A DNA stretch of 64,000 nt from assembly GCA_028695495.1 (NCBI GenBank), contig JAQVIX010000006.1, positions 335 to 64,334 of the forward strand, given 5' to 3'. Source of the stretch: Candidatus Cloacimonadota bacterium (GTDB lineage: Bacteria; Cloacimonadota; Cloacimonadia; Cloacimonadales; Cloacimonadaceae). The translations under genes and the position numbers were made by a program. Under the pieces are notes generated by a model. The model was not told the DNA's origin. It did no database searches and was given only the letters and a program-made list of their open reading frames with translations. This document shows, piece by piece, positions 11,457 through 63,996 of this stretch (position 1 is the stretch's first letter; every line of letters begins with the position of its first letter).

Positions 11457-11726
11457 CGTTTTGAAAACATACTATTTTCAGTGCGGGGCAATGTCTTGTA
11501 CTGATATAGGTTGACTCTTTTTTGCCATGAATTCGGCATGATTTTTAGGTAAAATATTGAGGGTTTTCTCAGGCATTGCCAAAATGATGAGCAGGAACAC
11601 AGCTCATCGGCTGTGTTCCATTGTTCCAGCTCATTTTGGTTCCGGTTATCCCTGGCAGGTTGCTCCCCAGCAGAGCCTGTTTCCGTTTCACCGGACAGGC
11701 TCATACTGGGAATGTAGCTAATTATG

Positions 11727-12653
11727 TCAAGAAACATTATTTTCCTGTGCACTTTTAGGCGTTTTATTTATTGATTTTTCATAGACATAAGATGGTGTTT
11801 TGAGCTTCAGGCTTAAGTGTGGTCTTACGTCATTGTACAAGCGAATACTATCTTTGGTGATTAGCCGGACAGCATTAGTATTAGGGAAACTGACATCCAG
11901 TCCAAATTCCGTCTTCAAAATGCCATTGATCCTTTCTGCAACAGCATTATCAAAGCATTTGTCTGGACCGGTCATACTGATTTCTGCGCCGTGGTCTTTC
12001 AAGATAGCGACATAGTTTTTACAGCAATACTGTACACCATGATCGGAATGATGAATGAAACCAGGTTCAGGCTTAGCATATTTTAGGGCTTTTTGCAAGG
12101 CATCTTCTGCCCCTTCGGCGTTAAGGCTCGATCTTACCGCATATCCAAGCACTTTTCGGCTATACAAATCTGAGACAAGAAACAGGTAGCAAAACTTGCT
12201 TTCTGCGAGTCTAATATAAGTTATATCACTTACCCACACCTGATTAGCGCGCTCTGGTACCAGACCTTTGATTAAAAAAGGATAAACTGGCAGATCAGGT
12301 GCCGAAATTGACGTGTTTTTTCGACGTTTATACAATCTGGATTGCAAATTGTACTTCCTCAGAATGGCAAATAGCCGGTCACGACCAACAATTATGGGTA
12401 ATCCATAAGCTGGATCGGCAAGCATAGCTTGAAGCTTAAGACCTCCCAATGTTGGTAGGATTTTACGAATCTCTAATATCCGCATGACCACGATATTCTC
12501 CAATTCTAGCCTTTTTTCAAGCGCTATTTCGCGTTTGTACTTGGCTTGTTTGCTGATTCCATAGATTTTGCAGAACCTGTCGATGCTGAATTTGACTCCT
12601 CGCCGTAAAGCTTTCTCTTTGCTTCTAACAAGGCTTGGCTCCAGGGCTTTTTT
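11727..12653 (-). CDS. IS3-family transposase OrfB (rve/DDE integrase core), expressed only as an OrfAB fusion by recoding
   Basis: The frame is open from the TAA at 12654-12656. It translates KKALEPSLVRSKEKALRRGVKFSIDRFCKIYGISKQAKYKRE..., then WVSDITYI and HHSDHGVQY (DDE core). It is in the +1 frame relative to orfA as sequenced. Confidence 0.8.
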   Translation of the reverse strand, partial: KKALEPSLVRSKEKALRRGVKFSIDRFCKIYGISKQAKYKREIALEKRLELENIVVMRILEIRKILPTLGGLKLQAMLADPAYGLPIIVGRDRLFAILRKYNLQSRLYKRRKNTSISAPDLPVYPFLIKGLVPERANQVWVSDITYIRLAESKFCYLFLVSDLYSRKVLGYAVRSSLNAEGAEDALQKALKYAKPEPGFIHHSDHGVQYCCKNYVAILKDHGAEISMTGPDKCFDNAVAERINGILKTEFGLDVSFPNTNAVRLITKDSIRLYNDVRPHLSLKLKTPSYVYEKSINKTPKSAQENNVS

Positions 12654-12987: not shown

Positions 12988-13066
12988 TGGTCAACTCCTA
13001 TTTTTTAGCGTTTTTTGGTCAACCAATTTCAGTACGGGACACAAAATCCGCCTCGCTACTCTATTC

Positions 13067-13132
13067 TCGCCCTCGCAATGCCCTCGCCTCTCCCCCGAAT
13101 TTGTGGGTAGAGATGACGGCATCATGAGGGCG
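13067..13132 (+). repeat. Palindromic repeat family B copy 1
   Basis: TCGCCCTCGCAATGCCCTCGCCTC...GAGATGACGGCATCATGAGGGCGG is a degenerate copy of the hairpin seen at 27655, 38073 and 47898. It lies 25 bp from the IS right end. Confidence 0.75.
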
Positions 13133-13300
13133 GCTATAGGGAAAGAATAAAGTAGCGGCAAGCTAATACCAGGTTTTGCGATATGCGAAAACCCGTGTTT
13201 CTCTGGCAAATCCCGATAAATATTCATCGAAAGGGTGGGCGCAGGGGTATCTGCCCCTGGTTTTGGGTAGCAATGAGCAGGCTTTTACTATTATCCGCTA

Positions 13301-27370: not shown

Positions 27371-27654
27371 TATGTCTCCTTAGATATTATCTATAAATAT
27401 TTTCTTAAGATTTACACTCTTTTTTAAGCGCCTCTTTACGTCAAGTTTTTTTTTGAGAAGCAATCCTTTTTTAATATTTTTGAGCGTTTTAAGGCGCTAC
27501 GTAGGCGGCAGGCAGCAGGCGCAGGTGGCGGATCGCCGCAGCAGTTTCGATAATATTTGTTCTTTTTTAGATCGTTCTGAGATTCAGGAAGATGAAATTA
27601 ACCGCAAATGAGTGCAATTGAATCTTGCAATCAAAACCGGCGGTTGCTCGTCTG

Positions 27655-27720
27655 ATGCCCTCGCAATGCCCTCATCTCTACCGGCTTTTTGTGGGTCGAG
27701 GCGAGGGCATTGTGAGGGCA
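27655..27720 (-). repeat. Palindromic repeat family B copy 2
   Basis: TGCCCTCGCAATGCCCTCATCTCTACC-GGCTTTTTGT-GGGTCGAGGCGAGGGCATTGTGAGGGCA is the reverse complement of the 47898-47962 copy with a few changes. Confidence 0.85.
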
Positions 27721-27735
27721 ACAAAGGAGGAAGGA

Positions 27736-27974
27736 GGCTGTCCCGAAATGCCAAAACCAAGCACGATATCTGTCACATTGGAAATGTAGGGGCGCATTGC
27801 TTTGCGTCCGCTTTTAACAAATCGTGCGCAAAGCGCACACCGCAATAAATTGATACTGAGTCCGTAATGATTACCTGTTGCGTGTAAAATTCGGCGGGTT
27901 CAATGCCTTGAACCCCTACATTTCAGGTGTGGACATTTCTTGATATTGTGTTGTTTGCGTATTACTGGACAGCC
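27736..27974 (-). repeat. Repeat family A copy 2
   Basis: GGCTGTCCCGAAATGCC...GCGTATTACTGGACAGCC. Contains the perfect GTAG-headed palindrome (reverse complement) GTAGGGGTTCAAGGCATTGAACCC. Confidence 0.85.
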
Positions 27975-28276
27975 TCACCGTTAAAGAATTGGTATATATA
28001 TTGCGTAATGATTGTATGATGTTTTTGAATTTTGCGGGCTTTGGCGCCCTCAAGCCCCTACAGACATATTCCAAGCTTATCTTGATGATTGTGTTCATTT
28101 TCGTAAATGTGAAGATTTTGAGGGCATACACGCAGGTCTGCCCCTACAATTCCATGGTGGCATTCGCGTAAATTAGCGGTTAAAACCCTTATGCCGCAGT
28201 TCGTGAAGTCAATGTCGCTTCCAAATGCGCTCTATTATTATTCAGGCGGATAAGCGCCATTAATTCCACGCCTGGC

Positions 28277-28322
28277 TTAATTCGTGGTCATTCGTGTTTT
28301 CATTCGTGTTAATTAGTGGTAG
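28277..28322 (+). repeat. Phased ATTCGTG array (family F) copy
   Basis: ATTCGTG at 28280, 28290 and 28302, and ATTAGTG at 28312 (spacing 10, 12, 10 bp). Confidence 0.75.
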
Positions 28323-31460: not shown

Positions 31461-32507
31461 ATGAGTGCAAAAAAAGTGCTTGGACAGTATTTCACCAAAA
31501 AAGACCTCTGGCTGAAGCCGCAGGTGGAAGCTTTTATCGTAAATAGTAAATGCAGTATTGCTTACGACCCTTTTGCCGGCAATGGCGATATGCTGGAAAC
31601 TATCAAAGGTATAGGTGAAATCAAACAAACGGTGGGCTTGGACATTGACCCCAAGCTTTCCTGGCGGCTAAATGACAGCCTCCAAGCCATCCCTGCGCTC
31701 GAAAACGCCATCATCATTACCAATCCCCCTTATCTGGCAAAATACAGCGCCAAACGTAAACAAATCCATCATGAATTGGAATATTATTACCAAAAAAGTG
31801 GATTCGTAGATATCTATCAATTGGCGCTGTTTAACACCCTGCAAAGCGCAAAATATGTGGTGGCGATCATCCCCGAAACCTTTGTAAACAGCCGCTTTTC
31901 CTATATGAACCGCTTAAGCCAGATTACGGTATTGGAAGAAAACCCTTTTGAAGATACGGAAAACCCCGTTTGCGTGGTTTGCTTCGATGGCAAAATCAAG
32001 AATTACGACCAGATAAAGATTTACAAAAACGATAAATACATCTGCACTTTGGACGATCTGGAACGGCACCGCCTAAAACCCAGATTTAGTGCAAGAATCA
32101 CCTTCAATACCCCAGAAGGGAAGATCGCCCTGCGCGGAGTGGATTCTACCAATACCCAAAACCCCATCAGCTTTATGCGTGAAGATGAATTGGATTATGA
32201 CACCAAACTTGTGAAAGCCAGCTCCCGCCTGATTACACTCATTGATATCGACTCACGCTATCAGCCCTATGTAGATGACATAATCCAGGAATCAAACCAA
32301 ATCCTGAAAAACTATCGCAATATTACAAAAGACCTGCTGCTCTCCCCCTTCAAAGGAAATCAAAAGAATGGAGTGCGCCGCCGCCGCCGGCTGGATTACA
32401 AGAGCGCCCGCGCCATCCTGGAGATGGCGATAGACCGGGTGAACGGAAATAATGATTCGTGCTCAAACTTGGTGAGTAATTCAGGATGGTTTGGGGTGTC
32501 TGTATAA
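31461..32507 (+). CDS. Type II N6-adenine DNA methyltransferase (gamma-class motif order), no cognate nuclease seen
   Basis: 348 aa. LGQYFTKK (motif X), DPFAGNGDML (motif I, FxGxG), IIITNPPY (motif IV). RBS AAGGAG 8 nt upstream. Confidence 0.8.
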   Translation: MSAKKVLGQYFTKKDLWLKPQVEAFIVNSKCSIAYDPFAGNGDMLETIKGIGEIKQTVGLDIDPKLSWRLNDSLQAIPALENAIIITNPPYLAKYSAKRKQIHHELEYYYQKSGFVDIYQLALFNTLQSAKYVVAIIPETFVNSRFSYMNRLSQITVLEENPFEDTENPVCVVCFDGKIKNYDQIKIYKNDKYICTLDDLERHRLKPRFSARITFNTPEGKIALRGVDSTNTQNPISFMREDELDYDTKLVKASSRLITLIDIDSRYQPYVDDIIQESNQILKNYRNITKDLLLSPFKGNQKNGVRRRRRLDYKSARAILEMAIDRVNGNNDSCSNLVSNSGWFGVSV

Positions 32508-32529
32508 CCTGCTATTTGTGAACATTAAG

Positions 32530-32732
32530 CCAGTCTTGTCCCATCAGGGACAGTGGTTTAGATAGCCCAGGGTGTTAGTGTTCCAATATGAGCTTGCGAA
32601 TATTGGAACACGATCACCCTGGGTAAGGGTAGCGTATTGATGTATGTTGTTTTATCCCCCGTCCTCCTCTTTTTTTATGTCCAAAATCTGCGGATTTTGG
32701 ACATAAAAAAAGAGGAGGGACGGGTTTTATTT
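32530..32732 (+). repeat. Structured element family C copy 1 (candidate ~200-nt ncRNA or hairpin recombination site)
   Basis: Conserved 5' module with hairpin TGTCCC-ATCA-GGGACA. Closing helix CCCAGGGTG/CACCCTGGG around a copy-specific 12-bp hairpin. A ~30-bp near-perfect hairpin is followed by GGGTTTTATTT. Aligns with 63794-63996. Confidence 0.8.
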
Positions 32733-32750
32733 CCTCATAAAAACTTCATT

Positions 32751-32831
32751 TTACCCAGGGTTTATTTTGCCCAAAATTAGCATTTTGGACAAAAACACCC
32801 TGGGCTATCTGAAATGCCGTTCCTACGGAAC
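32751..32831 (-). repeat. Family C partial copy, inverted, converging on copy 1
   Basis: The reverse complement reads GTTCC-GTA-GGAAC GGCATTTCAGATAGCCCAGGGTG [TTTTGTCCAAAAT-GCTA-ATTTTGGGCAAAA] ACCCTGGGTAAA. It has the same architecture with different stem sequences. Confidence 0.75.
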
Positions 32832-32907
32832 TCCATTCGGAGTGCATGTTTGGCATTTGCGGAAAGCCGTAACGCTGATTATATATGTATAGGGATACCC
32901 ACCCTGT

Positions 32908-33102
32908 TTGAAAGAGAGCCCTTATTTAGATGGCTTCTATTTCAATATCATAATCAAAAAGGAGTTGGAAAGAACCCAGAGCCGTGCCCGCCGGCAGTCC
33001 AAGCCACAAATCCAATTACGCAATATCCGCCAAAACCTTGCAAATAACGGCTCAAACTATTTTGTAAATACCGCGGGCTTCAAAGAGCTGATCAGCCGCT
33101 AA
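32908..33102 (+). CDS. Possible small basic protein or gene remnant (very uncertain)
   Basis: 64-aa ORF with a TTG start (frame open only from 32893). Basic stretch KKELERTQSRARRQSKPQIQLRNIRQ. Followed 25 nt later by a hairpin at 33127-33154. No family recognised. Confidence 0.2.
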   Translation: MKESPYLDGFYFNIIIKKELERTQSRARRQSKPQIQLRNIRQNLANNGSNYFVNTAGFKELISR

Positions 33103-34939: not shown

Positions 34940-34985
34940 ATATTCGTGAGAATTCGTATAAGCATTCGTGTTCATTAGTGGTAAA
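34940..34985 (+). repeat. Phased ATTCGTG array (family F) copy
   Basis: ATTCGTG 34942, ATTCGTA 34952, ATTCGTG 34964, ATTAGTG 34974. The 10, 12, 10 spacing matches the copy at 28280. Confidence 0.75.
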
Positions 34986-37762: not shown

Positions 37763-37947
37763 CTCGCAAGCTCGCAATGGTTTATTAGATGCTGACGCAT
37801 GGTGTGTGAAAGAAGATGGCAGGTGGCAGATTGCAGGCGCTGACGCTGGGGGTGTAATTGGGGAAAACCTTTTGAACTCCGAAGCGCTAAATAAAGGCGT
37901 TGAAAGAACTGATAGGCGGATAAGCGCTTTGAAGTCCAAAAAGCTGG
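37763..37947 (+). repeat. Repeat family D copy 1
   Basis: GCTCGCAAGCTCGC...CTGACGCAT...CTTTTGAACTCC...AGGCGGATAAGCGC...GAAGTCCAAAAAGCTGG aligns with 38178-38315, with a ~45-nt insertion. Confidence 0.7.
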
Positions 37948-38072
37948 TGGCGGAGTTATCAACTAAGGTGACCGAAGCTTTATAAATATTTCAGAAGCGG
38001 CAAGATGCCGATTTTACTTTCAAGCGACAAGATGCCGCTTCCACTTAACTGCCTTGGGTGTCTCCCGTTTCT

Positions 38073-38137
38073 CTCCCTCGTGATGCCCTCGCCTCAACCC
38101 AGAATTTACCGGTAGAGACGATGGCATTGTAAGGGCA
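38073..38137 (+). repeat. Palindromic repeat family B copy 3 (degenerate)
   Basis: CTCCCTCGTGATGCCCTCGCCTCAACCC...GGTAGAGACGATGGCATTGTAAGGGCA. Confidence 0.75.
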
Positions 38138-38177
38138 ACAGACGGGTAAAAGCCGATAATGAATAATGAATGATGCC

Positions 38178-38315
38178 GGCTGCGCAAGCGCAGCTTAATC
38201 TAAAAACTGACGCATTATCGCATAATCTGGGAAAGTCTTTTGAACTCCTGCCCGCTTGCATAAGGCGGTGACAGCAATGAAAGGCGGATAAACGGGATGA
38301 AGTCCAAAAGACTGG
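38178..38315 (+). repeat. Repeat family D copy 2
   Basis: GGCTGCGCAAGCGCAGC...CTGACGCAT...CTTTTGAACTCC...AGGCGGATAAACGG...GAAGTCCAAAAGACTGG. Confidence 0.7.
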
Positions 38316-38317
38316 CA

Positions 38318-38365
38318 TAATTCGTGTTAATTTGCGTTAATTTGTGGACAAAAAAACTAAGGGCA
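38318..38365 (+). repeat. Phased ATTCGTG array (family F) copy
   Basis: AATTCGTGTT/AATTTGCGTT/AATTTGTGGA in exact 10-bp phase, then CAAAAAAACTAAGGGC. Homolog of 469-517. Confidence 0.8.
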
Positions 38366-38544: not shown

Positions 38545-41500
38545 TCATTCAGTGCCTCTTGCTTTCACTACAAAGAAGAGGCGATCTATATAAGGGGTTA
38601 CTTCGGGGAAATAGAAGGAAGTTTCGGTAGTAATATCCACGAGGTTGCCGATATCCGGCGTTTCATCGGGGGTGGTAAGCACATAGATTTCGTATCCGGC
38701 TACTACTAAGGGGCTGCCCGTAGTATCGGTGGTTACTTCGTCCCAGGAGATGAGCAGGTCTTCGCCAAAGATTTCCAGGCGCAGATTTTGGGGCGCAGCC
38801 GGTATTCCGCCGCTTTTGGAGAGCGGATTGGAGATAGCGGCGCTGGAGCTTACACTATTTGTATAGCGTGCTTTTACTGCCCAATAGTAGTCTCCTTGAG
38901 GCAGGTTTTCCCACTCGGCATCGAGGTAGCTATTTGCCGCTATGGGTTCGGAATTGATCTGCTGCCAGGCGGCGGGATTGTGCAGATTTGCCGCCGTAAA
39001 ACGAAATACATCATAGGCTTCCAGGCTGCGCGGGCTACGGGCAAAAGAGGATAGCACCTGGAAATTATCGATAAACCAATCGTACCAAAGCCCGTCATCT
39101 TCCGAGCCGGCAAGGGCATGGAAAGCGATGCGGATATAGCGACCGGAATATTCGGAAATATCCAGACTGATGGGCGTTTGATAATCGTTCCAGCCGGTGG
39201 GTAGAGTAGCGGCATTCCAGAGGGTAATCCAGTTTTGCCCGGCATCGGTACTTAGCTTTAGCATATAGCTATCGCCATTTTCCGAGCCGTAATACACGCG
39301 GGTATCGAAACTGAGGATGGCATCGGAGGGGCAGGTAAAATCTTCGGTAATCAGCCATTCATTTTGGTAGTTGTAATCCCACCACAAACCCGCCTGAAAG
39401 GAGTCATCGCTGGGGCTTACCAAAGTGGAACCACTGGAAATCTCGCCCACGCGCTCCCAATGGGGATAGGCGCCATTGGAAAGTATGCCGCCGCTATTTG
39501 TGATAATGCGGCTCCAATTTGCCGGCGGAAACTGTGCATTTTCAAAGCTTTCCTGGATGCCGATGGCGTTGGGATTGGGAGTATGCCAGCTTAAAGCCAC
39601 GCCGCGGGGGTCTGCCGAAATAGCGGCTTGCAAATTGTACGGCGCAAAGGCAAGCTCATCCATCTGCAAACTGCCAAAAGAATAATTCTGATCCTGCAAT
39701 TCCAGGATGCCGGTGATATTGCTATAGCCCGGATGGCTGAATTTGTATTGATAGCTATGCTGTGCAAAAACCTGCGGGAATACGAATCTGCCATCGGCGG
39801 CGCTTTGGACATGGTAATCCTCATAACCCTGTAAGCTGATATTTACGCCGGCAATGGGGGCTAAAGTATCGCTGGCAATTATCATGCCAGATACCATAAC
39901 CTGAGGCAGGCTTTGCAGGGTGATCTCCAGAGAAAGCTCATCATCTTCTTGAAGCTGTAGCACTTGCTCCCAATCGAAATAGCCATGTTTGTGAAATGAT
40001 AGATGATATTCATTGGGGAGAAGGTTCATAAAGGCAAAGCTGCCATCTGCCGCCGTCATTTGCGGATTGGTATTGTGATTCAGATGCACCGCCACGCCGC
40101 TTAAGGGCAGCCCCTCAGCATTTTTTACCACGCCAGTGATATGCCCAACGCCGCCGGGAATTACCACAAAGGTAGTTTTGGGATATACACCCGTGGCGCT
40201 GCCGCCGGAAGGGGAATAGGGATCGTAATCTGTGGTATCGCTCATCATATTGCGGGCGCGATTGCTGGCATCGCTACTGGTTAAAAACAGATCCGACGAG
40301 CTAAAATAAGAGCCATCCAGAGGACGCTGCACCATCATTACCAGGTTGCCGCCTTCCAAAAAGAGGAAAGGCTCTGGAAATGTAATATTGATGGTATTAC
40401 TGCCGGAAGGAAAATCCGCCACGCCATTGTAAACCAGGGTCATCTCCGAGGCGGGTATCCAGCCAGAGCTGAGGTCATTTTGCGTAGTTCTGCCCAGCCA
40501 GATTTTTACGGGTTTTGCCATAAGGTTTGAGCTGAACTGGTTATAGAACTTGATGCCGGTAATCATTCCAATGAAGTTATTTAGCTCATTTGCCGTAAAG
40601 ATAGTTTCATAGAGCGAGCTCTTGTAATAGAAATCCATGGGTATGCGCCCCGTTTGATTGCCATAGCCGATAGTGATATCATTTATTCCATTACCCGTAA
40701 GCTGGATGCTGTGGGTTCTGCGCTCGCCCTGATCGTCTGTAATGGTAATAAGGGCGCTATCGGTTCCCAGCAGCAGCGGGGTATAAATCACATTAAAACT
40801 GAGTGCGGCAAAGCTATTTAAAGATACGGGAAGCTGTGGCAGATCGCTAAGCCGGAAGGCGGAAGAGCCGGAAATAGTGATGCTCTGGATGCCCAAGCCG
40901 TCACCGCCGATATTCATGATATTGAAGTTCTGGCTACTACTACCACCGATATTTACATCACCAAAACTGTGGGAACTAGGAGTTATATAAAACTCGGGGG
41001 CGCCCGTGGTGCTGCCGGATACGGCAAAGCGGAGATTGGGGCGGTTTGTTTGTGCACTACCGCCGGTGAGATTGGCGCCGTTATTGCTATCCGCATTGTG
41101 CGCCCAGGTTTTGCCCGGCGCACTGGTGGCATACACGCTGCTATTTCCGCTCCAGCTACTATTATCGAAGGATACATCTACCAAAAGGTTGCCGCCTCCG
41201 GTATATAGAAAAGGCTCGCTAAATTGGAAAGTATTCCAGCCGGTGCCGGAAAGAGGAGCGCTGGATGTATGACAGCTCTGGAAGCTATTGGCATCGGTAT
41301 CAAAGCCGCTTAAGGTAGTAGCATTGGTGTGTTTAAGGCGAACTAAGAAGTTATTTACCGCAATGGCATTTGCAGATTGTACATCGAAGGCAATGCTGCT
41401 GATCTCCATGCCCGGAAACATCCCATGCGCTGCTAATTCATCTGTGGTAAAAAGCATCTGGGTGCGCGCATCTTCATAAAGCGTGTAAAAGGGAAAGCTC

Positions 41501-42474
41501 GAAGTAGTGGTGCCGGTACCGATGGTAATATGTTGGGTTCCTTCCGCCAATACGGTAATATCCAGGCTGGGGCTATCGTTATTGGCGAGGTTTTCATCGG
41601 CAGCAAATATCACTCTGCCAAAAAGCAGCATACTGCCGGTAGCTGTAGGAATCCAGCTAAAGCTAAAGTTCCGCTCTTCCATGGATGCCAAAGCGCTGCC
41701 CGGCAGGCTGGCAAGCTCCTGATTTGGGCTTGCCATCAGCTTCAGGCTATAGTTTGATACGCTATTGGGAGAGAGGTTTTTTACCCTAAGTACGTAGTTT
41801 GCATTAGCGCCCACAGAAGGGGTGATATTTCCCTCTAAACTAAGTGCTGCCAAATCCTGAACATTGGGTAAAGCCATAGTGAAGCGCATATTGGAGCGAT
41901 TGCGGGCAGCGGTACCGCTGGTGGCATTGGTGCCGGAAGTACTATCGCTTTGGTAGCGCAGCGAGCTATTGAAAGTGGTGCTGCTATAATACACGCTGGG
42001 GTTGCGGGCATAACTTCCTACACACAGATCCGTCATGATATCCACCAAGAGGTTGGAAGTGCCATTCCAATGGAACGGTGCGCTAAAGGTATGGGTATTC
42101 CAGCCCACTACGGGAATGAAGCTATCTGCCTGAAATACCTGAGTGTAGGTGCCCGTTTCAAAGGAACTGCTAAGCGAAGTTTGGTTCGTGGTTTTCAGGC
42201 GAATGCGGTAGTTATTCATGGGGGTAGTATTATTTAAGGCACTCACCTGAAAGGCAATGGAATAGATATTACCGGCATTGCCGCCGGCATTGTTCAATTC
42301 GCTGGCAAGCACCAGGTATTGCTGCCGAAATGCCTTGTACCAGGTACCATAAGGTACAGGTGCGCCGGTATCGGTATTGGTAGTGGTGCCGGTACCTATC
42401 ACCACTTGCGTTTGCGCCAATAGGGCAAGGCAAAGGCTAAGTGCCAGTACTATGAAAATAAGCTTTTTATACAT
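38545..42474 (-). CDS. Giant secreted surface protein: three N-terminal ~280-aa repeats, carboxypeptidase-regulatory-like and choice-of-anchor-J/MAM-like regions, C-terminal FN3-like domain
   Basis: 1309 aa. Signal peptide MYKKLIFIVLALSLCLALLAQ. Repeat starts VVIGTGTTTNTD / ITIGTGTTTSSF / ITIGYGNQTGRI. ESFENAQFPPANW segment. The C-terminal ~85 aa are homologous to the C-terminus of the neighbouring gene. Confidence 0.75.
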   Translation of the reverse strand: MYKKLIFIVLALSLCLALLAQTQVVIGTGTTTNTDTGAPVPYGTWYKAFRQQYLVLASELNNAGGNAGNIYSIAFQVSALNNTTPMNNYRIRLKTTNQTSLSSSFETGTYTQVFQADSFIPVVGWNTHTFSAPFHWNGTSNLLVDIMTDLCVGSYARNPSVYYSSTTFNSSLRYQSDSTSGTNATSGTAARNRSNMRFTMALPNVQDLAALSLEGNITPSVGANANYVLRVKNLSPNSVSNYSLKLMASPNQELASLPGSALASMEERNFSFSWIPTATGSMLLFGRVIFAADENLANNDSPSLDITVLAEGTQHITIGTGTTTSSFPFYTLYEDARTQMLFTTDELAAHGMFPGMEISSIAFDVQSANAIAVNNFLVRLKHTNATTLSGFDTDANSFQSCHTSSAPLSGTGWNTFQFSEPFLYTGGGNLLVDVSFDNSSWSGNSSVYATSAPGKTWAHNADSNNGANLTGGSAQTNRPNLRFAVSGSTTGAPEFYITPSSHSFGDVNIGGSSSQNFNIMNIGGDGLGIQSITISGSSAFRLSDLPQLPVSLNSFAALSFNVIYTPLLLGTDSALITITDDQGERRTHSIQLTGNGINDITIGYGNQTGRIPMDFYYKSSLYETIFTANELNNFIGMITGIKFYNQFSSNLMAKPVKIWLGRTTQNDLSSGWIPASEMTLVYNGVADFPSGSNTINITFPEPFLFLEGGNLVMMVQRPLDGSYFSSSDLFLTSSDASNRARNMMSDTTDYDPYSPSGGSATGVYPKTTFVVIPGGVGHITGVVKNAEGLPLSGVAVHLNHNTNPQMTAADGSFAFMNLLPNEYHLSFHKHGYFDWEQVLQLQEDDELSLEITLQSLPQVMVSGMIIASDTLAPIAGVNISLQGYEDYHVQSAADGRFVFPQVFAQHSYQYKFSHPGYSNITGILELQDQNYSFGSLQMDELAFAPYNLQAAISADPRGVALSWHTPNPNAIGIQESFENAQFPPANWSRIITNSGGILSNGAYPHWERVGEISSGSTLVSPSDDSFQAGLWWDYNYQNEWLITEDFTCPSDAILSFDTRVYYGSENGDSYMLKLSTDAGQNWITLWNAATLPTGWNDYQTPISLDISEYSGRYIRIAFHALAGSEDDGLWYDWFIDNFQVLSSFARSPRSLEAYDVFRFTAANLHNPAAWQQINSEPIAANSYLDAEWENLPQGDYYWAVKARYTNSVSSSAAISNPLSKSGGIPAAPQNLRLEIFGEDLLISWDEVTTDTTGSPLVVAGYEIYVLTTPDETPDIGNLVDITTETSFYFPEVTPYIDRLFFVVKARGTE

Positions 42475-42492: not shown

Positions 42493-45400
42493 TTAAGGAT
42501 TTACGGTTACTTTGAAGAATCTGCGGTTTTGATTTGCGGTGGGAATGCTGAAGCTATTGGTAGCGGTAGAGCCAATGAAGCTTTCAGCATTAAGCTCAAA
42601 ATAAGGCGTATCCGAGGCATAAACCTTATATCCGCTTATGCTGATGGGATTGCCCAAGAGGTCGCTATTTACAGCATCCCAGCTTAGGATCAGGTTTTGC
42701 GCTTGCATTTGAAGGCTGATATTCTGCGGGGCGATGGTAAATATACCCAAAGAGAAAGTGAGGGCATCGCTTAGTTCACTGGCATTGCCGGAAAGATCAA
42801 GCGCCCGTATCGCCAGGGTGTAGATGGCTTCGGGCAAGCCGGAGATGCTAAGGGCAGAGGTTTCCATATTGCCCAAAGCGGGGTATTCTGCCACGGAATA
42901 CATGGGCGAACTAAGGCTTACGCTGTTGCCTTCTGCCAGATACACTTCATAGTGGCTAAAATGGAGGTCAAAGGAAGGTTCCCAGCTTATCTGGATATTG
43001 CCATTTGCCGCTGAGACTAATAGTACATTATTCACCTGAGTGGGCGCCGTGGTATCCGGCACCAAGCCGCTGAGGCTGAGATCATCGATAATCCAATGAT
43101 TTGCAAATCCAGATGTATTCGCCGGGGCGGAATATGTCCAGCGCAAACGCACGGAGCTTTTATTATCCAGCGCCGGTAGCGAGTATTCTCGATAACCCCG
43201 GTAAGCGCTACTAAAAGCATCGATATTTACCCAGGTGATATTATTGAAGGAATACTGCAAGAGCGAGCTTGCCGTTCCCAAGGGCTGATAATCCATCCAA
43301 AAACGCAATTTGGTATTTTGGAAAGTGCTGAGATTGAAGCTGGCGGTGCTGAGGCGTTCATTGGCAGTATTACCGGGGGAGGCAGAGCATTGCATAAAGT
43401 GGTTATCCCAATCGTTTTGGGCAATCTGCCAGCCGCTGGTGGTATTGCCCAGGTGCCCAATCTGCCAACCGGTAGGCAAGCTGCCAGATTCAAAATCCTG
43501 CACAAGGCAATAGGCATTTTCCACCGAGAGCTGTAAATATTGCTCGATGTGCCGCCCCATGGGGTCGCTGGCTTTGATGCCCAGCTGGGTATCGCCATAA
43601 TACTCTGCCGCGGGAATGATGCGCAGCGTTTTACCATGTACTTCAGCTACAATCTCCGGATGTTCTATTAGAGAATAGCTGAGGTAAGCGGTGCTGTGGA
43701 AATAGCTATCCAAATCCTCGATCAGATAGGTTTCACCCTGACGCAAAGCGACATCCCCAAAGGGGGCGAGGGTGGCGGGAGCATCGTACATGGAGGGGTT
43801 ATTTGTAATATAGAGCGCTTTGCCACTGCTCAAAGGCGCCGCAGCGGTGGGGTATATATTATTGAACGTATATTCCAGCCCGCGGGTGCCGCTATGGTCT
43901 TCAATACCAATGGTGCTGTAATTTCCATGACGATTGCCGCTTTGGGCATCTACGTTATTGAAAGTATGATATTGGAACTTGATGGGACCATCGCCCAGGC
44001 TGCTGTAATAGTAATTTTGGTCATACAAAATCACCTGAAAGGTTTCGGGTGAGCTGCCGTTGTAACCATTACGCATATTGTACCATTCCACGATGAAGCG
44101 GCGATTGGGGCGATCGAACCAATAGGATATGCTGCTGCCGGAATGGGTAGCGAGGTCGTCCCAGAAGGGGGCAATCATCGGGCTGGGACCCATGGCACCG
44201 GGCAGGCGGAAATTGCGGAATTCGGCATTCCCCGTTTCGCCCAAAGCGATGAAGCCATTGGAACAAACGGTTATCACATCGTACAGCCTGCCATAGAACT
44301 GGAAGGCAAAGGGTAAGTTTACCACCGCGAGGGACTGGGCGCCTACCTGGTCTCCTTCAGTGCTGGTATAGGGGTCGTTGATTGCCAGCGCAGTGCCCAT
44401 CCCGCCAGCATTGGGAGCTATTTCTACCCATTCATATACCGGCGCTTCGCTATAGGCAGTATCCGTCCAGTCGTAAATCACATAACCGTAGCTATCGGGA
44501 CCCAGCGGGTGCTGCTGGGAAACGGTGCCAATCTCCAAATTGAAGGGCACAATCTGCTCAAAGCCGCCCGCAGTATAGAGCCTGAGGCGCAGGGGCATGA
44601 GCATGCCGGGCAGGGTAGGTGTGCGACAAAAGACCTGGAAATTGTCGTTATTACAATTCACGGTGGAGTTTATGCCAAAATTGCCAAAAAAGGCGCTATC
44701 ATCCACTACTTCCAGCAGATCGTTATCCGATATAAGCTCGCCGAAAAGGTTTTGCTGAGTGGCGGCGCCGATATTTTTGATGCTGATACTAAGGCGGGCA
44801 GTTTCGCCGGGGTCTAAAACCGCATTGGCATTGTCGATCACCGCGTAGGAAATATACTGTGCCAAGGCAGATTCCACGGGTAAAAACTCGGACACATCGT
44901 AAATGCCTCCCATGGAATTATCCAGAAGCAGGTGCAGGCGTAGCATGGTATTATGCGGGGTATCTGGCGCTACAGAAATTACCAGAGGGCTATTTGGAGT
45001 AGCACTGCCACCGGCAGGGATGGAAGGATAGCTTACATGCCCTTGCAGGATTTGCACCCAGGGGCTTTCGGTATAAAGAACGCCACCCACGCGATTAAGC
45101 GGGCTGGAACCGGTATTGCGCAAGCCAAAATAGAGATTCACCGTTTCGCCGCCATTTACAATGCCGTTGTTATTGCCCTCTATAGAATCATCTACCACCA
45201 TGGAAGCGGGCACCAGGGTGGCGGTATTTTGGATCTGAATATTGTGTTGCAAAGGCTTGAAATCGTGGGAGTGTATAGTAAGAATTGCGGCACCAGCGCT
45301 CATGGAAGCAGGCAGTACCAGGATTACATTACCTTCCGCATCCGTATAGCCACGGGATAAGATATTGGCGCCTTGCGAAAGCACCACCGAAGCGCCTTCC

Positions 45401-47196
45401 ACGGGGTTGCCGGCAGAGTTTTTCACTGCTACATCCAAAAGTGAAAGCCCCACAGGGATATTGGGGATGGTAGCAATCTGGAAGCTATCGGGCACTTTTA
45501 CAAAGACTTCCATGGTGGGATCTCCTATCAGATTGCACCAATGCGTAAACTTCTCTACGTTTGTTGGAGACGATACGCCAAAGATTTCGTTCATATACAG
45601 CTTACCATGCAAGAGACCTTCACCCATGGTACGCATGCCTCTTACAAATACGCCTTCAAAAAAGCCGCCATGCAATACATTATTGAAGGTAGTGTGGGTA
45701 CTGGAGGTAGCCATGCCAATGGCGGTAACGGAGCCTTTGGGGGCAGCGGTAGTGCCCATGCGGGTAATGGTCTCCGTTTCTGAGGTGCCAGAATAATTGC
45801 CGGTTCCGCAAGTAGTTAATACAGCATGCGGCAATTTGTAGCTATTACTTATGGAGCCATCGGAAGGAGGGCTGAAATCTATATAACCTCGAAAGCTATA
45901 GAAGCCAATGCCCTGATTTAATGCGTTATTTACCGAGCTTACGTTTTCATTGAAATTGGGCGTATAAAGCTCGGTAAAAGTGGCTTCGGGGTTTATTTCC
46001 AGCGCCATTTCTTTGATGTATTTGCTGATATAGATGGTAGAAATACCGGAATAATAGTAATTTGCCACCAAAAGATGGTGGTTTAGCCAAGAGGCTGTAT
46101 CGATATTGATATCCTTTTCATAAAGGAAAACCTTATTGAGCATTACCAAAAATTGAGAGCTATTTTCTACCGAAATGCGACCGATAAATACATCACCAAG
46201 TATATCTCCGGTATTCATAAAGCTATAAGGATAATCTGTACTACCGCCATTATTGCTAAAACAAGGGATGGTGAAGCTACCTGAAGTATCGCCAATAAGC
46301 ACCACATAGTCTGGACGCGTGGCAGAGTTATTGTAGCGATTCCGAATATAGGTTTGAATGGAAGAAGTGGAAGAGCCGGCGCTATTGGTAGCAGTAGTAG
46401 CGATATCCACATCCGCACCCTTCTGCCTTTTCCAAAGTACATAAGCGTTTAAGGCATTGAGGAAAGTATTATCTGTGGTATTGCCATGGATAATCAGGTA
46501 GCGGGGCGGAGTATTTGCCAAGAGGAGATGGCGATAATCTTCAAAATTGAGAATAAAGGATTCGTAAGTTTTGGCAAATGCTGCGCTGAGGAATTGCGGT
46601 TCGGCTGGCAATTCGTTGCTGCTGGCATCGTTTGTGTAGTTTACGCGCAATTCGATCTTTTGCCTTACGCAAAGCTCACCCGTGGCAGCATCATACACAA
46701 AAGGGCTTATCGATATATTTACAATGCGCAGCTCGCGCAAGAGCATGGGGGCGCTATGGCTTACAAAGTTTGCAGGATATTGCCCCTGTCCGCGGTAAAA
46801 ACCTTCACTATAGCTAAAGCTGCGGGCGGTTTCCGGTAAGCTGGCATCTTGCACCGGATAGGGATTGATGCCACTTAGTACGCTCATTTGGCTATTTTGC
46901 ACTTCCAGCGAAATGCCGCCCTGGGCAGGAATAGCGATATAGGTATTAAAAAGCGGTAATTCCGGAAGACCTGTTTCGGCTAAATAGTGTGCTTCTGCCA
47001 GCTCAATCTTTTGAAAGCTTTTTCCAGCAGCCTGTAGCTCGCTCAATCTGTATTCAGGTAAGTGAAACTGGATCTTCATTCCCTGGCTATCGCGCTGTAA
47101 AATGCGATATGGCGAGGGACTTACGGTTAATTCCGGTGTAAGTGCAATAAGTTGCCAAGCCCAAAGACTCAGCACCAAAAGCAAGAATCTCTTCAT
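42493..47196 (-). CDS. Giant secreted peptidase-C25 (gingipain)-like surface protein
   Basis: Start taken at MKRFLLLVLSLWAWQLIA (47196). Propeptide-like N-terminus. C25-like core (YVVLIGD..., LPHAVLTTCGTGNY aligns with the gingipain Cys context). Choice-of-anchor-J-like QDFESGSLPTGW. Two FN3-like C-terminal domains. Confidence 0.75.
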   Translation of the reverse strand: MKRFLLLVLSLWAWQLIALTPELTVSPSPYRILQRDSQGMKIQFHLPEYRLSELQAAGKSFQKIELAEAHYLAETGLPELPLFNTYIAIPAQGGISLEVQNSQMSVLSGINPYPVQDASLPETARSFSYSEGFYRGQGQYPANFVSHSAPMLLRELRIVNISISPFVYDAATGELCVRQKIELRVNYTNDASSNELPAEPQFLSAAFAKTYESFILNFEDYRHLLLANTPPRYLIIHGNTTDNTFLNALNAYVLWKRQKGADVDIATTATNSAGSSTSSIQTYIRNRYNNSATRPDYVVLIGDTSGSFTIPCFSNNGGSTDYPYSFMNTGDILGDVFIGRISVENSSQFLVMLNKVFLYEKDINIDTASWLNHHLLVANYYYSGISTIYISKYIKEMALEINPEATFTELYTPNFNENVSSVNNALNQGIGFYSFRGYIDFSPPSDGSISNSYKLPHAVLTTCGTGNYSGTSETETITRMGTTAAPKGSVTAIGMATSSTHTTFNNVLHGGFFEGVFVRGMRTMGEGLLHGKLYMNEIFGVSSPTNVEKFTHWCNLIGDPTMEVFVKVPDSFQIATIPNIPVGLSLLDVAVKNSAGNPVEGASVVLSQGANILSRGYTDAEGNVILVLPASMSAGAAILTIHSHDFKPLQHNIQIQNTATLVPASMVVDDSIEGNNNGIVNGGETVNLYFGLRNTGSSPLNRVGGVLYTESPWVQILQGHVSYPSIPAGGSATPNSPLVISVAPDTPHNTMLRLHLLLDNSMGGIYDVSEFLPVESALAQYISYAVIDNANAVLDPGETARLSISIKNIGAATQQNLFGELISDNDLLEVVDDSAFFGNFGINSTVNCNNDNFQVFCRTPTLPGMLMPLRLRLYTAGGFEQIVPFNLEIGTVSQQHPLGPDSYGYVIYDWTDTAYSEAPVYEWVEIAPNAGGMGTALAINDPYTSTEGDQVGAQSLAVVNLPFAFQFYGRLYDVITVCSNGFIALGETGNAEFRNFRLPGAMGPSPMIAPFWDDLATHSGSSISYWFDRPNRRFIVEWYNMRNGYNGSSPETFQVILYDQNYYYSSLGDGPIKFQYHTFNNVDAQSGNRHGNYSTIGIEDHSGTRGLEYTFNNIYPTAAAPLSSGKALYITNNPSMYDAPATLAPFGDVALRQGETYLIEDLDSYFHSTAYLSYSLIEHPEIVAEVHGKTLRIIPAAEYYGDTQLGIKASDPMGRHIEQYLQLSVENAYCLVQDFESGSLPTGWQIGHLGNTTSGWQIAQNDWDNHFMQCSASPGNTANERLSTASFNLSTFQNTKLRFWMDYQPLGTASSLLQYSFNNITWVNIDAFSSAYRGYREYSLPALDNKSSVRLRWTYSAPANTSGFANHWIIDDLSLSGLVPDTTAPTQVNNVLLVSAANGNIQISWEPSFDLHFSHYEVYLAEGNSVSLSSPMYSVAEYPALGNMETSALSISGLPEAIYTLAIRALDLSGNASELSDALTFSLGIFTIAPQNISLQMQAQNLILSWDAVNSDLLGNPISISGYKVYASDTPYFELNAESFIGSTATNSFSIPTANQNRRFFKVTVNP

Positions 47197-47642
47197 GTTA
47201 TTTCCCTTATTTAATATTGTAAAGAATAAAAAACGTTCAGCTAAATTGTTGAGATTTTGCTTGAACACACTTTTTTGAGGGGGAAGGAATTGTCAAGCAG
47301 GGATTTGCCGTATTTCTATATTAGTTGCACAGTCAATATTTGCTGGCAAAAAACTGATAATTAGGGAGGATATTCAAGATAATGATAATAAGGGATTTAG
47401 CCTGGAAGTATGGGGCTATTATTGAGAATAATTGAAGGCATAAAAAGCGCTTGAGTCAGTTTTTATTTGCTGCCCGGAAAGGGGATATTTTGGCGATAAC
47501 CAAGATATTTTATTACAGGCTTTGTAAACAGGGTGGGTAAGCCATTAATAGTTTTGCAAGCAAGTATTATCCCCGAAATTGTGGGTTTGCAGCCAAGTTA
47601 AAGGCTGTCCGGAAATGCTGGCAACATGCCTGCCGTATTTGG

Positions 47643-47881
47643 GGCTGTCCAGAAATACGCAAACATCACCATATCAAGAAATGAACACACCTGAAATGTA
47701 GGGGTTCAAGGCACCCAAACCCGCCGTATTTTACGCGCAACAGGTAATCATTATGGATTGTGTATCAATAAATAACGGTGTGCGCTACGCGCACGCTTTG
47801 TCAAAAGCGGGCGCAAAGCATTGCGCCCCTACATTTCCAATGTTACAGATATCGTGCTTGGTTTTGGCATTTCGGGACAGC
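47643..47881 (+). repeat. Repeat family A copy 3
   Basis: GGCTGTCCAGAAATACGC...GAAATGTAGGGGTTCAAGGC...GTGCGC-TAC-GCGCAC...GCATTGCGCCCCTACATTTC...GGCATTTCGGGACAGC. Confidence 0.85.
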
Positions 47882-47897
47882 ATCCTGCCTCCTTTGT

Positions 47898-47962
47898 TGC
47901 CCTCGCAATGCCCTCGCCTCGACCCACAAAAAGCCGGTAGAGACGAGGGCATTGCGAGGGCA
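47898..47962 (+). repeat. Palindromic repeat family B copy 4 (best-preserved hairpin)
   Basis: TGCCCTCGCAATGCCCTCGCCTCGACCC-ACAAAAAGCC-GGTAGAGACGAGGGCATTGCGAGGGCA. The outer 19 bp are perfectly complementary. Confidence 0.85.
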
Positions 47963-47977
47963 GCAGACGGGTAGCCG

Positions 47978-48082
47978 TGTCTTATACTGAAGTAGGGTGC
48001 CGCTTTTTTGCAATAGAATTGGCATTGTTTGGGGGATGTTTTTGAGGGTTTTCTCGGGCATTGCCAAAATGATGTGCTGGAC
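47978..48082 (+). mobile_element. Solo remnant of the IS3-family left end
   Basis: TGTCTTATACTGAAGTAGGGTGCC...TGAGGGTTTTCTCGGGCATTGCCAAAATGATG aligns with the first ~105 nt of the IS at 11492 (last ~38 nt nearly identical). No transposase follows. Confidence 0.7.
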
Positions 48083-48114
48083 TCATGCTATTTGAGATCA
48101 ATAAACGAACTTGA

Positions 48115-48355
48115 GGCTGTCCAGTAATACGAAAAACAACATAACAACAAGAAATGTCCACACCTGAAATGTAGGGGTTCAGGGCACCCAAACCCGCCGA
48201 AAATTACACGCAACATGTAAGCATTATGGATTGTGTATCAATAAATAACGGTGTGCGCTACGCGCACGCTTTGTCAAAAGCGGGCGCAAAGCATTGCGCC
48301 CCTACATTTCCAATGTTACAGATATCGTGCTTGGTTTTGGCATATCGGAACAGCC
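48115..48355 (+). repeat. Repeat family A copy 4
   Basis: Near-identical to copy 3 over its right two-thirds. It ends CATATCGGAACAGCC, 10 nt from the stop of the response-regulator gene. Confidence 0.85.
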
Positions 48356-63286: not shown

Positions 63287-63504
63287 GCTTTTACTACCTT
63301 AATCTTAAATTAGTTCCAGCATTTTTTAAGCCCCATATTTGTCAAGAAATGCCGCTGAATTTCAAAGGAGACAGACGCTACGCCCATTACGAAGCTGCCA
63401 GTAGTATGCCCGAAAACCATCAAAAGGGGAATGTGAGGTTCAAGATTCTTTGTTGTATGTTCATTTTGTATTTCCGTATTGCCACGATAATCCTTTATTT
63501 TTCT

Positions 63505-63585
63505 GTGCATTAGCTGTGTTTGCGCTGCTTCCCCGTCCCTTCCCCGTCCGTTGTCCGTGGAAGCAACGGGTAAATAACGAGTTAC
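63505..63585 (+). repeat. Repeat family E copy 2
   Basis: CGCTGCTTCCCCGTCCCTTCCCCGTCCGTTGTCCGTGGAAGCAACGGGTAAATAACGAGTTAC aligns with the reverse complement of 2409-2480. Confidence 0.8.
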
Positions 63586-63793
63586 TAATGCTTTTCTTGG
63601 CAATGCCGATTTTGGTTTACCAAAGTTGAATTCATTTGAGGAGATTCATATTTGATAATAGGCGATGAAATATGACATTTATAAAGAATCATAAAACTCA
63701 AGCTTGTGCAATTTTAAAAGGCTCACTTTCAAACTTGGTGGGTAGCCATCGAATATATTGGATGCGATTATTTCCCGAAATGATGGCATCCTA

Positions 63794-63996
63794 CCAGTCT
63801 TGTCCCGTCAGGGACAGTGGTTCAGGTAGCCCAGGGTGTGCTTGCCAAAAACGAGCTTGCGAGTTTTAGGCAAGATCACCCTGGGTAATGGTTGCGTTTT
63901 GATGGTTGTCTTTTATCCCCCAGCCTCCCCTTAGATTTACTCCCCAAAAAAGCGTTTTTGGGGAGTAAATCTAAGGGGAGGGCTGGGGTTTTATTT
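63794..63996 (+). repeat. Structured element family C copy 2 (candidate ~200-nt ncRNA or hairpin recombination site)
   Basis: It has the same conserved modules as 32530-32732. Both variable hairpins have different sequence but retained pairing (CTTGCCAAAAAC/GTTTTAGGCAAG; AGCCTCCCCTTAGATTTACTCCCCAAAAA/TTTTTGGGGAGTAAATCTAAGGGGAGGGCT). It ends GGGGTTTTATTT. Confidence 0.8.

Follow-up and report, generated by a model that had tools for sequence, protein, structure and literature searches.

Family C in a Cloacimonadota Chromosome

The window analyzed here, a 64,000-nucleotide (nt) stretch of contig JAQVIX010000006.1 from assembly GCA_028695495.1, is a piece of housekeeping chromosome with AsnB, Der, PlsY, and PurF among its encoded proteins, and it holds two copies of a structured repeat, here called Family C, at positions 32530 to 32732 (copy A) and 63794 to 63996 (copy B). 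Der shares 80 to 84% identity with its counterparts in metagenome-assembled genomes (MAGs) of Candidatus Cloacimonadota, and the host chromosome is that of Candidatus Cloacimonadota. Copy A has as its neighbors an asparagine synthase gene, a 348-amino-acid (aa) open reading frame (ORF) of an Eco57I-like methylase family (31461 to 32507, plus strand), and a gene for a DUF4143 ATPase; copy B is located upstream of der-plsY-purF. Both are solitary amid housekeeping genes, with no cassette array around them, and a tRNA/tmRNA scan of the window identified no tRNAs and no relationship to tmRNA. Family C is modular, is present in multiple dispersed copies, covaries at paired positions, and includes a palindrome, H2, with near-perfect Watson-Crick pairing.

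The original prediction, made from the letters of the window alone, had described two copies with a set of conserved parts, and every one of these was found where it had been placed. A repeat finder paired 32530 to 32575 with 63794 to 63839 (46 nt, 93% identity). Each copy carries a small hairpin (TGTCCC-ATCA-GGGACA at 32537 to 32552 in copy A and TGTCCC-GTCA-GGGACA at 63801 to 63816 in copy B), followed by a closing helix, CCCAGGGTG/CACCCTGGG, which pairs 32566 to 32574 with 32615 to 32623 in copy A and 63830 to 63838 with 63877 to 63885 in copy B. The helix word CCCAGGGTG is commoner in the window than in shuffled sequences, and the loop GAGCTTGCGA is the same in both copies. Stretches of ~215 nt around copies A and B gave folding energies of −115 and −117 kcal/mol, respectively, compared with −55 to −65 kcal/mol for dinucleotide shuffles; none of 200 shuffles folded as well (z scores, −12.1 and −11.6).

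Copies were also identified beyond the window. The 22-mer TGTCCCNTCAGGGACAGTGGTT occurs at ~29 sites on 24 contigs from two metagenomes, and from this recurrence Family C is a real repeat family and not a product of chance. These loci have the repeats in common with the window and not the flanking sequence. No match to the 22-mer was found in 185,579 GTDB species genomes. A covariance model of the central hairpin of the element (model R1 of the M hairpin, described below) detected M units three times in the window but not at all in the ~100 kb that make up 14 related Cloacimonadota der loci; given this absence from related genomes, the family appears restricted to a narrow lineage. Neither the 22-mer nor the M pattern was present in viral contigs, and a phage origin was rejected on this basis. 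Short-read contigs carrying the exact flanking proteins of copy A stop inside the repeat, at 32563 to 32573 on the left and ~32805 on the right, and such breaks are typical of a multicopy element. The literature yielded no paper on repeats in Cloacimonadota.

Modular Organization of the Repeat

The ~200 nt originally reported for each copy represents a single arm within a larger mosaic of shuffled intergenic hairpin repeats. The order of parts in an arm is a 25-nt head, an alternative U module (~50 to 90 nt), a small hairpin (F5), the 58-nt M hairpin, a linker, and the palindrome H2. The element ends first proposed need to be moved, as similarity begins ~75 to 88 nt further 5′ and copy A runs 3′ to position 32920. 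The head consensus, GGCTCNCTTTCAAAYNNGGTGGGTA, was matched 17 times, and the similarity among copies starts exactly there. At least three unrelated alternatives (U1, U2, and U3) were found behind this common head. F5 comprises the small hairpin with a tail ending ..TTYAGNTAG. M can be oriented by its apex, with the small hairpin always on its 5′ side, and its 3′ side leads into TAA, the linker, and H2 unless a second, inverted small hairpin takes their place; M is flanked by one small hairpin or by two.

All parts of copy B read on the plus strand. Its head (GGCTCACTTTCAAACTTGGTGGGTA; 63720 to 63744) matches the consensus exactly, and the similarity of 11 aligned copies begins at this point. 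The U1 module (63745 to 63793), which contains a hairpin GGATGC..GCATCC and is common to 10 other copies, is followed by F5 (63794 to 63829; small hairpin and tail), M (63830 to 63885; 87.2 bits with R1 and one A.A mismatch in the variable stem), a T-type linker (63886 to 63916), and H2 (63917 to 63996), in which 33 Watson-Crick pairs and one bulged G span 63918 to 63988 and TTTTATTT follows. The window ends 4 nt past this H2, so a possible partner arm would be out of view.

In copy A, a degenerate head (GATTCGTGCTCAAACTTGGTGAGTA; 32454 to 32478, plus strand) lies inside the last codons of the 348-aa ORF. Its six mismatches to the 25-nt consensus are at noise level on their own; its core, CTCAAACTTGGTGAGTA, shares 15 of 16 positions with the copy B head and is about equally far 5′ of the small hairpin. 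Together with the beginning of the element, the degenerate head encodes the last ~17 codons of the ORF (..CSNLVSNSGWFGVSV*), and the repeat seems to have replaced or extended the 3′ end of this gene. The plus-strand series continues with F5 (32530 to 32565; small hairpin plus the tail GTGGTTTAGATAG) and M (32566 to 32623; 100.3 bits with R1), which is made up of the 9-bp base helix, a conserved internal loop of T.T and purine.purine mismatches, a 12-bp variable stem, and the apex GAGCTTGCGA at 32590 to 32599. A T-type linker (TAAGGGTAGCGTATTGATGTATGTTGTTTTAT; 32624 to 32655), a part with ~55% mean identity among copies, leads to H2 (32656 to 32732), where 31 Watson-Crick pairs and one bulged G occupy 32658 to 32724, a direct TTTTAT stands on both sides, and the 3′ TTTTATTT lies at 32725 to 32732.

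Copy A does not end at H2. A second, inverted M unit with a shortened apex (M′; 32748 to 32816, minus strand; R1, 55.8 bits; E value, 3.4e−11) forms its convergent partner arm, with mismatched hits at 32754 and 32796. This partial unit is probably the "third instance" mentioned in the original prediction. On the plus strand it overlaps a stretch resembling the Acido-Lenti-1 motif (32754 to 32832), which consists of the M′ base helix, GCUAUCUGAAAUGCCGU, and a hairpin GUUCC-UAC-GGAAC. A U3 module (32833 to 32895, minus strand), parts of which recur in metagenome loci L024 and L005, and a right-arm head (GGCTCTCTTTCAAACAGGGTGGGTA; 32896 to 32920, minus strand) complete the unit. This head has one mismatch to the consensus, a level at which shuffled sequences are expected to give no matches. 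Read from left to right, the composite at ~32454 to 32920 consists of degenerate head, F5, M, linker, H2, inverted M′, companion small hairpin, U3, and inverted head.

Across the loci, arms stand alone, converge across a single M (L018, with 296 bp between its two heads, 1736 to 2031), or converge across H2 (L012, L017, L020, L024, and window copy A). Fourteen arms were retrieved through F5; 10 of these were T-type, with the T-run downstream of H2, and 4 had inverted flanks. Where H2 lies between convergent arms, its T-run suits one arm and not the other. Inverted pairs of heads bound the units at L018 1736 to 2031 and at 32454 to 32920 of the window and also a unit with other cargo at L034 3318 to 3497. 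The last, in a related Cloacimonadota MAG upstream of der, is ~180 bp long and is enclosed by two head-like motifs in inverted orientation, GGCTCTCTTCCAACTCGAGTGGGTA and GGATCACCTTCAAACCAAGTGGCTA; the sequence between them has no relation to Family C, from which it follows that the head motif is older and more widespread than M and H2.

Among the 14 arms, mean pairwise identity was 100% for the M apex, 96% for the base helix, 70% for the arms of the stem between them (hairpin 1), 55% for the linker, 59 to 62% for the H2 arms, and 46% for the H2 center. F5 reached 95% across 14 copies, a value that is partly circular, as these copies were retrieved with the F5 motif. Over the full arm, 95% of cells were paired versus 83% in shuffles, and 24 of 50 pairs had changed on both sides (shuffle mean, 14.9; no shuffle reached 24, and no slid register came near it). 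Hairpins 1 and 2 had been described as unrelated in sequence between the two window copies yet still paired. The pairing was borne out by this covariation; the sequences themselves are not unrelated, as 14 to 26 copies show them to be homologous variants.

The U2 copies (e.g., L005 460 to 531, L013, L017, and L018) often contain a 23-codon ORF (M[QK][PA]KMAS[NY]SS..KVLSRQGQWF[RS]*) situated after GAGAAAATG; it crosses the small hairpin and terminates at the invariant TAG that precedes M. Of 10 distinct U2 copies, 8 have this ORF intact and 2 have early stops. A coding function was rejected, as the shared hairpin is read in a different frame by U1 copies and early stops occur in several copies.

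The M Hairpin and the H2 Palindrome

The two hairpins of the arm are conserved in different ways. In M, the base helix, the apical loop GAGCTTGCGA, and the T.T and purine.purine mismatches are fixed, and the ~12-bp middle stem is variable, with 7 of 13 pairs changed on both sides. The hairpin 1 sequences form a continuum of GTGCCCAAAWAY-like variants, some of them with mixed or mismatched arms (L007 and L013). The irregularities of M are symmetric mismatches, with no bulges, and TAG directly precedes the base helix in all 25 copies (GTAG in 8 of the 25). As M keeps its mismatches and apex despite any pressure toward arm correction, selection on a specific folded shape can be argued. Because these parts are fixed while the middle stem is free to change, M would be the likely recognition site of the element, read on a folded single strand in a sequence- and shape-specific manner.

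H2 behaves differently. Fourteen distinct copies of 31 to 35 bp contain 463 Watson-Crick pairs and 2 G-U pairs, and 20 of 24 pairs have changed on both sides. The palindrome continues through the center (CCGCGG, TCCGGA, CACGTG, or CCG-G-CGG, the last with a single central base) in seven of the 16 listed copies, which represent at least four distinct variants, and TTTTAT stands as a direct repeat on the two flanks of H2. Across copies H2 takes the form of homologous, CCCCC..CCCCTCC..TTTA..GCACAAAAY-like variants, and its arms diverge as fast as the linker (~60% identity) yet stay paired. This pattern points to the signature of a DNA palindrome and not of an RNA. The compensatory changes in additional copies that the original prediction had called for were found in both hairpins, although for H2 they are probably to be read at the level of DNA.

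Template-switch repair is a well-established source of mutation in quasi-palindromes, and the fast drift of H2 without one-sided intermediates fits correction of one arm against the other. We infer that a process of this type, acting on DNA, keeps the arms of H2 identical, in place of selection on an RNA. H2 may itself be a separate palindromic insertion flanked by the direct TTTTAT; these repeats could be a target duplication or merely part of the module. The bulged G, described as conserved, is present at the same position of the 3′ arm in both window copies and in none of the 12 other distinct H2 copies, and it is a one-base difference in the length of a C-run between the two arms.

The resemblance of hairpin 2 to an intrinsic terminator on the plus strand was confirmed for both window copies, in which a stem with GC-rich ends runs directly into TTTTATTT, and the same combination is present in 10 of the 14 arms. 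In copy A it sits after the 348-aa ORF. Unlike Rho-independent terminators, H2 has a far longer stem of 31 to 35 perfect pairs, has its T-run on both sides as a direct repeat, and is a homologous repeat module not tied to one gene, with an inconsistent orientation toward genes. If transcribed, H2 and its T-run would strongly terminate or insulate transcription in one direction; the transcript of the 348-aa ORF, for example, would end there.

Relationship to Acido-Lenti-1

The original prediction recognized no known RNA family in the copies, and indeed no Rfam model reached its gathering threshold, whether in the window or in the 20 metagenome and 14 related MAG loci scanned. Permissive scans returned generic noise from microRNA hairpin models on H2 and M, together with one match to Acido-Lenti-1 (RF01687) at 32754 to 32832, which scored 31.7 bits (E value, 2.3e−5 in a 601-nt scan) against a gathering score of 37 bits. 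Copies A and B as first reported did not match this model even at an E value of ≤1. Acido-Lenti-1 was described as a multicopy candidate RNA of Acidobacteria and Lentisphaerae, in some cases found close to group II introns (Weinberg et al. 2010, PMC2864571).

The likeness extends over the whole 46-position model. The first hairpin has a CCYAG..CURGG base, GGCUA is followed by a linker of ~10 nt to AUGCCGU, and the match is completed by a 5-bp hairpin in which one pair is compensated. This two-hairpin GGCUA...AUGCCGU layout is present in M′ and the next 28 nt, and F5-M has it on the opposite strand with a diverged linker. In seed sequences such as ..GGGCUACUAUCAGAUGUCCCUUCGGGACA, the 3′ half is similar to the reverse complement of F5 (CUACCUGAACCACUGUCCCUGACGGGACA). 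Like Acido-Lenti-1, Family C is multicopy and partly clustered, and one related MAG locus (L043) has a similar companion hairpin as a tandem pair. The differences are the length of the first hairpin (58 nt with its own conserved apex, versus ~22 nt), the setting of the unit in a mosaic with heads, U modules, and H2, which the motif lacks, the phylum (Cloacimonadota), and the best-folding strand, which is opposite to that annotated in Rfam. Judged by sequence and layout, F5-M has the look of an enlarged and diverged unit with the Acido-Lenti-1 architecture.

The published Acido-Lenti-1 seed (PMC2864571, supplement 183) bears on the question of strand. In its annotated orientation, 36 A.C and 8 G.U pairs were counted over 65 distinct sequences, which are not independent of each other. 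The 36 A.C pairs would read as 36 G.U pairs on the opposite strand. The strand chosen in Rfam may be wrong, or the motif may be a DNA repeat; the count gives a hint that relevance lies with the other strand or with DNA. Many of the seed copies lie in tandem arrays with periods of 69 to 192 nt.

Nature of the Family

With a rough probability of 0.55, Family C is best interpreted as a lineage-specific, probably mobile, mosaic repeat comparable in kind to miniature inverted-repeat transposable elements (MITEs) and to repetitive extragenic palindromes and bacterial interspersed mosaic elements (REP/BIME). It would have spread by some form of transposition or recombination. Other families in the same genome are likewise bounded by inverted repeats or palindromic and are nested beside Family C arms.

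As with REP, BIME, and REPIN sequences of Proteobacteria, the units are extragenic imperfect palindromes in many dispersed copies, built as mosaics of motifs and linkers. They have a short conserved head beside the stem, possible side effects as terminators or transcript stabilizers, and frequent inverted pairs, as seen in the convergent M pairs of the window, L012, L017, L020, and L024. They differ in their greater length (58-nt M, 70-nt H2, and ~270-nt arms), in keeping only TAG and not GTAG, and in phylum, and no gene for a RAYT (Y1 transposase) was found in the window or the loci examined. Bacterial MITEs such as Correia, BOX, ERIC/IRU, and RUP share with Family C a noncoding nature, a length of a few hundred bp, an intergenic location, a modular interior, and the ability to carry terminators or promoters. 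The terminal inverted motifs that bound such elements have their equivalent in the heads of L018 (1736/2031), L034 (3318/3497), and the window (32896 to 32920 with the degenerate 32454 to 32478). In contrast to MITEs, the two arms can hold different internal modules. A match to a known MITE or Rfam family had been named at the outset as grounds for abandoning the prediction; the MITE- and REP-like organization and the 31.7 bits obtained with Acido-Lenti-1, against the 37 required, approach such a match and fall short of it.

Several observations weigh against this interpretation. No direct repeat indicative of a target-site duplication brackets the complete units, and the flanks of 15 heads are A/T-rich. 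Empty sites were not found, as the contigs with exact flanking proteins all end inside the repeat. The original prediction had suggested a look for a protein gene (recombinase, nuclease, or RT) consistently linked to the copies; all-against-all BLASTP of 100 flanking ORFs revealed no recurrent recombinase or transposase. An RNA role is possible, since the head-U1-F5 arm and M fold better on one strand. The proposed terminator activity has weak backing from gene order, as 8 of the 14 scorable cases have a co-directional gene ahead of the T-run, and a simple consensus terminator scan did not flag H2, probably owing to its bulge and stem length. No autonomous insertion sequence with the same ends was found in the window either. 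The only transposase of the window is a single integrase-core (DDE) ORF of the rve/rve_3 type (11727 to 12503, minus strand), and with no head-like motif nearby it does not stand out as a partner for Family C.

The first alternative is that each arm is a structured small RNA (sRNA) gene of ~275 nt, with a head hairpin, a three-way junction formed by U1 and the small hairpin, M, the linker, and H2 as terminator, belonging to a multicopy sRNA family and either transcribed on its own or released from 3′ untranslated regions. The modules do follow the order expected of an sRNA, with structured 5′ parts, a GC-clamped stem, and a U-run, and the abrupt onset of similarity at the head is what a transcription start would give. 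However, similarity does not reach past the head, no conserved promoter was found upstream of it, and scans detected no σ70-type site there. (An outward promoter of the Bacteroidota type within the head was considered and not adopted; the reversed head holds (T/C)AnnTTTG but no −33 TTTG at the right spacing. The outward direction of the head agrees with that of the next gene in only 9 of 13 scorable cases.) Folding of the head-U1-F5 arm favors the plus strand, where G-U pairs are used (−38.9 versus −29.6 kcal/mol on the minus strand; z scores, −3.3 versus −2.0), and this arm is not palindromic, but no pair in it has changed on both sides. M is also more stable on one strand, the one that reads GAGCUUGCGA, by 3.25 ± 0.6 kcal/mol on average, and as read from the sequence, the apex can close a CUUG loop with tandem G.A pairs on this strand alone. 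The wobble pairs of M (14 G.T and 10 A.C), however, show no strand bias and are uninformative.

The evidence from H2 is less favorable to an RNA gene. In copy B and L013, where no co-directional gene lies upstream, H2 would end the transcript of the arm alone, yet its polarity is wrong for 4 of the 14 arms and necessarily for one arm of each convergent pair. Selection on an RNA predicts neither the scarcity of G-U pairs (2 of 465) nor the several copies that are palindromic through the center. Acido-Lenti-1, which part of the composite resembles, is classed as an sRNA in Rfam; free shuffling of modules, truncation, inversion, and nesting with other repeats are nevertheless unusual for RNA genes. 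The idea of a discrete sRNA gene, put forward in the original prediction, is thus weakened by the finding that the unit is a mosaic arm with alternative 5′ modules, inverted partners, and H2 in either polarity, and it must be regarded as unlikely.

Less probable again is that the hairpins are single-stranded DNA sites of recombination or transposition for a Y1/HUH, RAYT, IS200/IS605-like, or integron-type enzyme. A hairpin recognized by its shape and a few bases would be expected to look much like M, with its fixed base, mismatches, and loop around a free middle stem; the invariant TAG 5′ of the base helix (GTAG in about a third of copies) recalls the REP head, the frequent inverted pairing of M units is REPIN-like, and heads without target duplications are as expected for Y1-type elements. 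M is, on the other hand, longer than typical REPs, and genes for such enzymes were found neither beside any copy nor among the 19 window ORFs scanned, which are part of the ORFs of the window and include no integrase. The original comparison was with integron attC sites, which share a conserved base, a variable yet paired top, a function that would depend on a folded single strand, and one extrahelical base in each window copy. It did not survive closer inspection. The R″/R′ core sites (RYYYAAC ... GTTRRRY) are absent from the M base (CCCAGGGTG/CACCCTGGG) and from the H2 flanks (TTTTAT/TTTTATTT), the extrahelical base is not family-wide, and the copies stand alone between housekeeping genes with neither a cassette array nor a nearby integrase.

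A broader proposal, speculative and doubtful at present, is that M and its small companion hairpin, as an enlarged version of the two-hairpin Acido-Lenti-1 unit, form the cis site of a system recognizing a folded single strand, through a single-stranded DNA transposase or recombinase or an RNA-binding protein, that is common to Cloacimonadota, Lentisphaerota, and Acidobacteriota, with the H2 palindromes as a by-product of hairpin-templated copying. If true, this would give the orphan Acido-Lenti-1 a function, probably on the strand opposite to that in Rfam.

That the copies are nothing but ordinary gene-specific terminators or look-alike chance palindromes, as the position of hairpin 2 and its T-run behind the 348-aa ORF might suggest, can be dismissed in view of the 46 nt in common at 93% identity, about 30 further copies elsewhere, fold z scores of about −12, pattern counts far above those of shuffles, and the location of copy B after no gene.

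Other Repeats and Neighboring Genes

The intergenic regions of the host genome are densely packed with repeat families. D1 (~245 bp) is MITE-like, with the inverted repeat GGCTGTCCnGAAATRC and an internal hairpin, GCGGGCGCAAAGCATTGCGCCC, and has copies at 212 to 454, 27734 to 27977 (minus strand), 47639 to 47884, and 48110 to 48355; in several metagenome loci it directly adjoins M units of Family C. D2 is a palindrome of ~81 nt (GCCCTCGCAATGCCCTCGCCTC...GAGACGAGGGCATTGCGAGGGC) present at 13063 to 13143, 27651 to 27731, 38068 to 38148, and 47893 to 47973. Its arms are 79 to 90% complementary in two copies taken from an inverted-repeat scan, and all of its copies are in long intergenic regions that also hold D1. 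D3 is a 93-nt pair with 74% identity (37855 to 37947 and 38223 to 38315), and a 20-mer of the ATTCGTGTTAATT type occupies five intergenic sites at 472 to 491, 28280 to 28321, 34964 to 34983, and 38320 to 38339. A 40-nt sequence next to the rve ORF (11557 to 11596) recurs at 48042 to 48081 with 93% identity.

Repeat-rich intergenic regions also flank two adjacent, very large ORFs on the minus strand (42493 to 47268 and 38545 to 42474), one of which encodes a 1,591-aa peptidase of the C25 (gingipain) type with a propeptide and the other a 1,309-aa protein with CarboxypepD_reg domains. The sole recurrent neighbors of Family C among the metagenome loci are small pilin-like proteins with no Pfam match. 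These paralogues (MGTQQILLIVLSVIIVGAAIAVGIQMF...), encoded at L009 924 to 1460, L025 7370 to 7891 (the same as L027 1674 to 2195), and L027 3013 to 3471, have a hydrophobic N terminus, and clusters of Family C and D1 repeats lie on both flanks of each gene. Upstream of der (63287 to 63544 of the window), five of the six listed short-read contigs with the exact Der protein end ~258 to 262 nt before the gene, and the sixth ends 65 nt before it. The point at which the five end lies ~175 nt before the head of copy B and suggests further repeated or variable sequence at this point.

Implications

On present evidence, Family C is a new family of a familiar bacterial kind of repeat and reveals neither a new RNA class nor a new system of recombination. 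Its wider interest lies in the contrast between the shape-constrained M and the self-correcting DNA palindrome H2 and in the sub-threshold link to Acido-Lenti-1. H2 offers a clean natural case of arms that diverge like unconstrained DNA yet remain perfectly paired, and it may help to tell DNA-level from RNA-level covariation in screens for structured RNAs. If the interpretation as a probably mobile mosaic repeat holds, an undescribed family of mosaic palindromic repeats would be added to Cloacimonadota, a phylum known from uncultured organisms only; the breaks of short-read assemblies at the repeat sites would be explained; and the 16-year-old orphan motif Acido-Lenti-1 would be linked to the biology of repeat elements.

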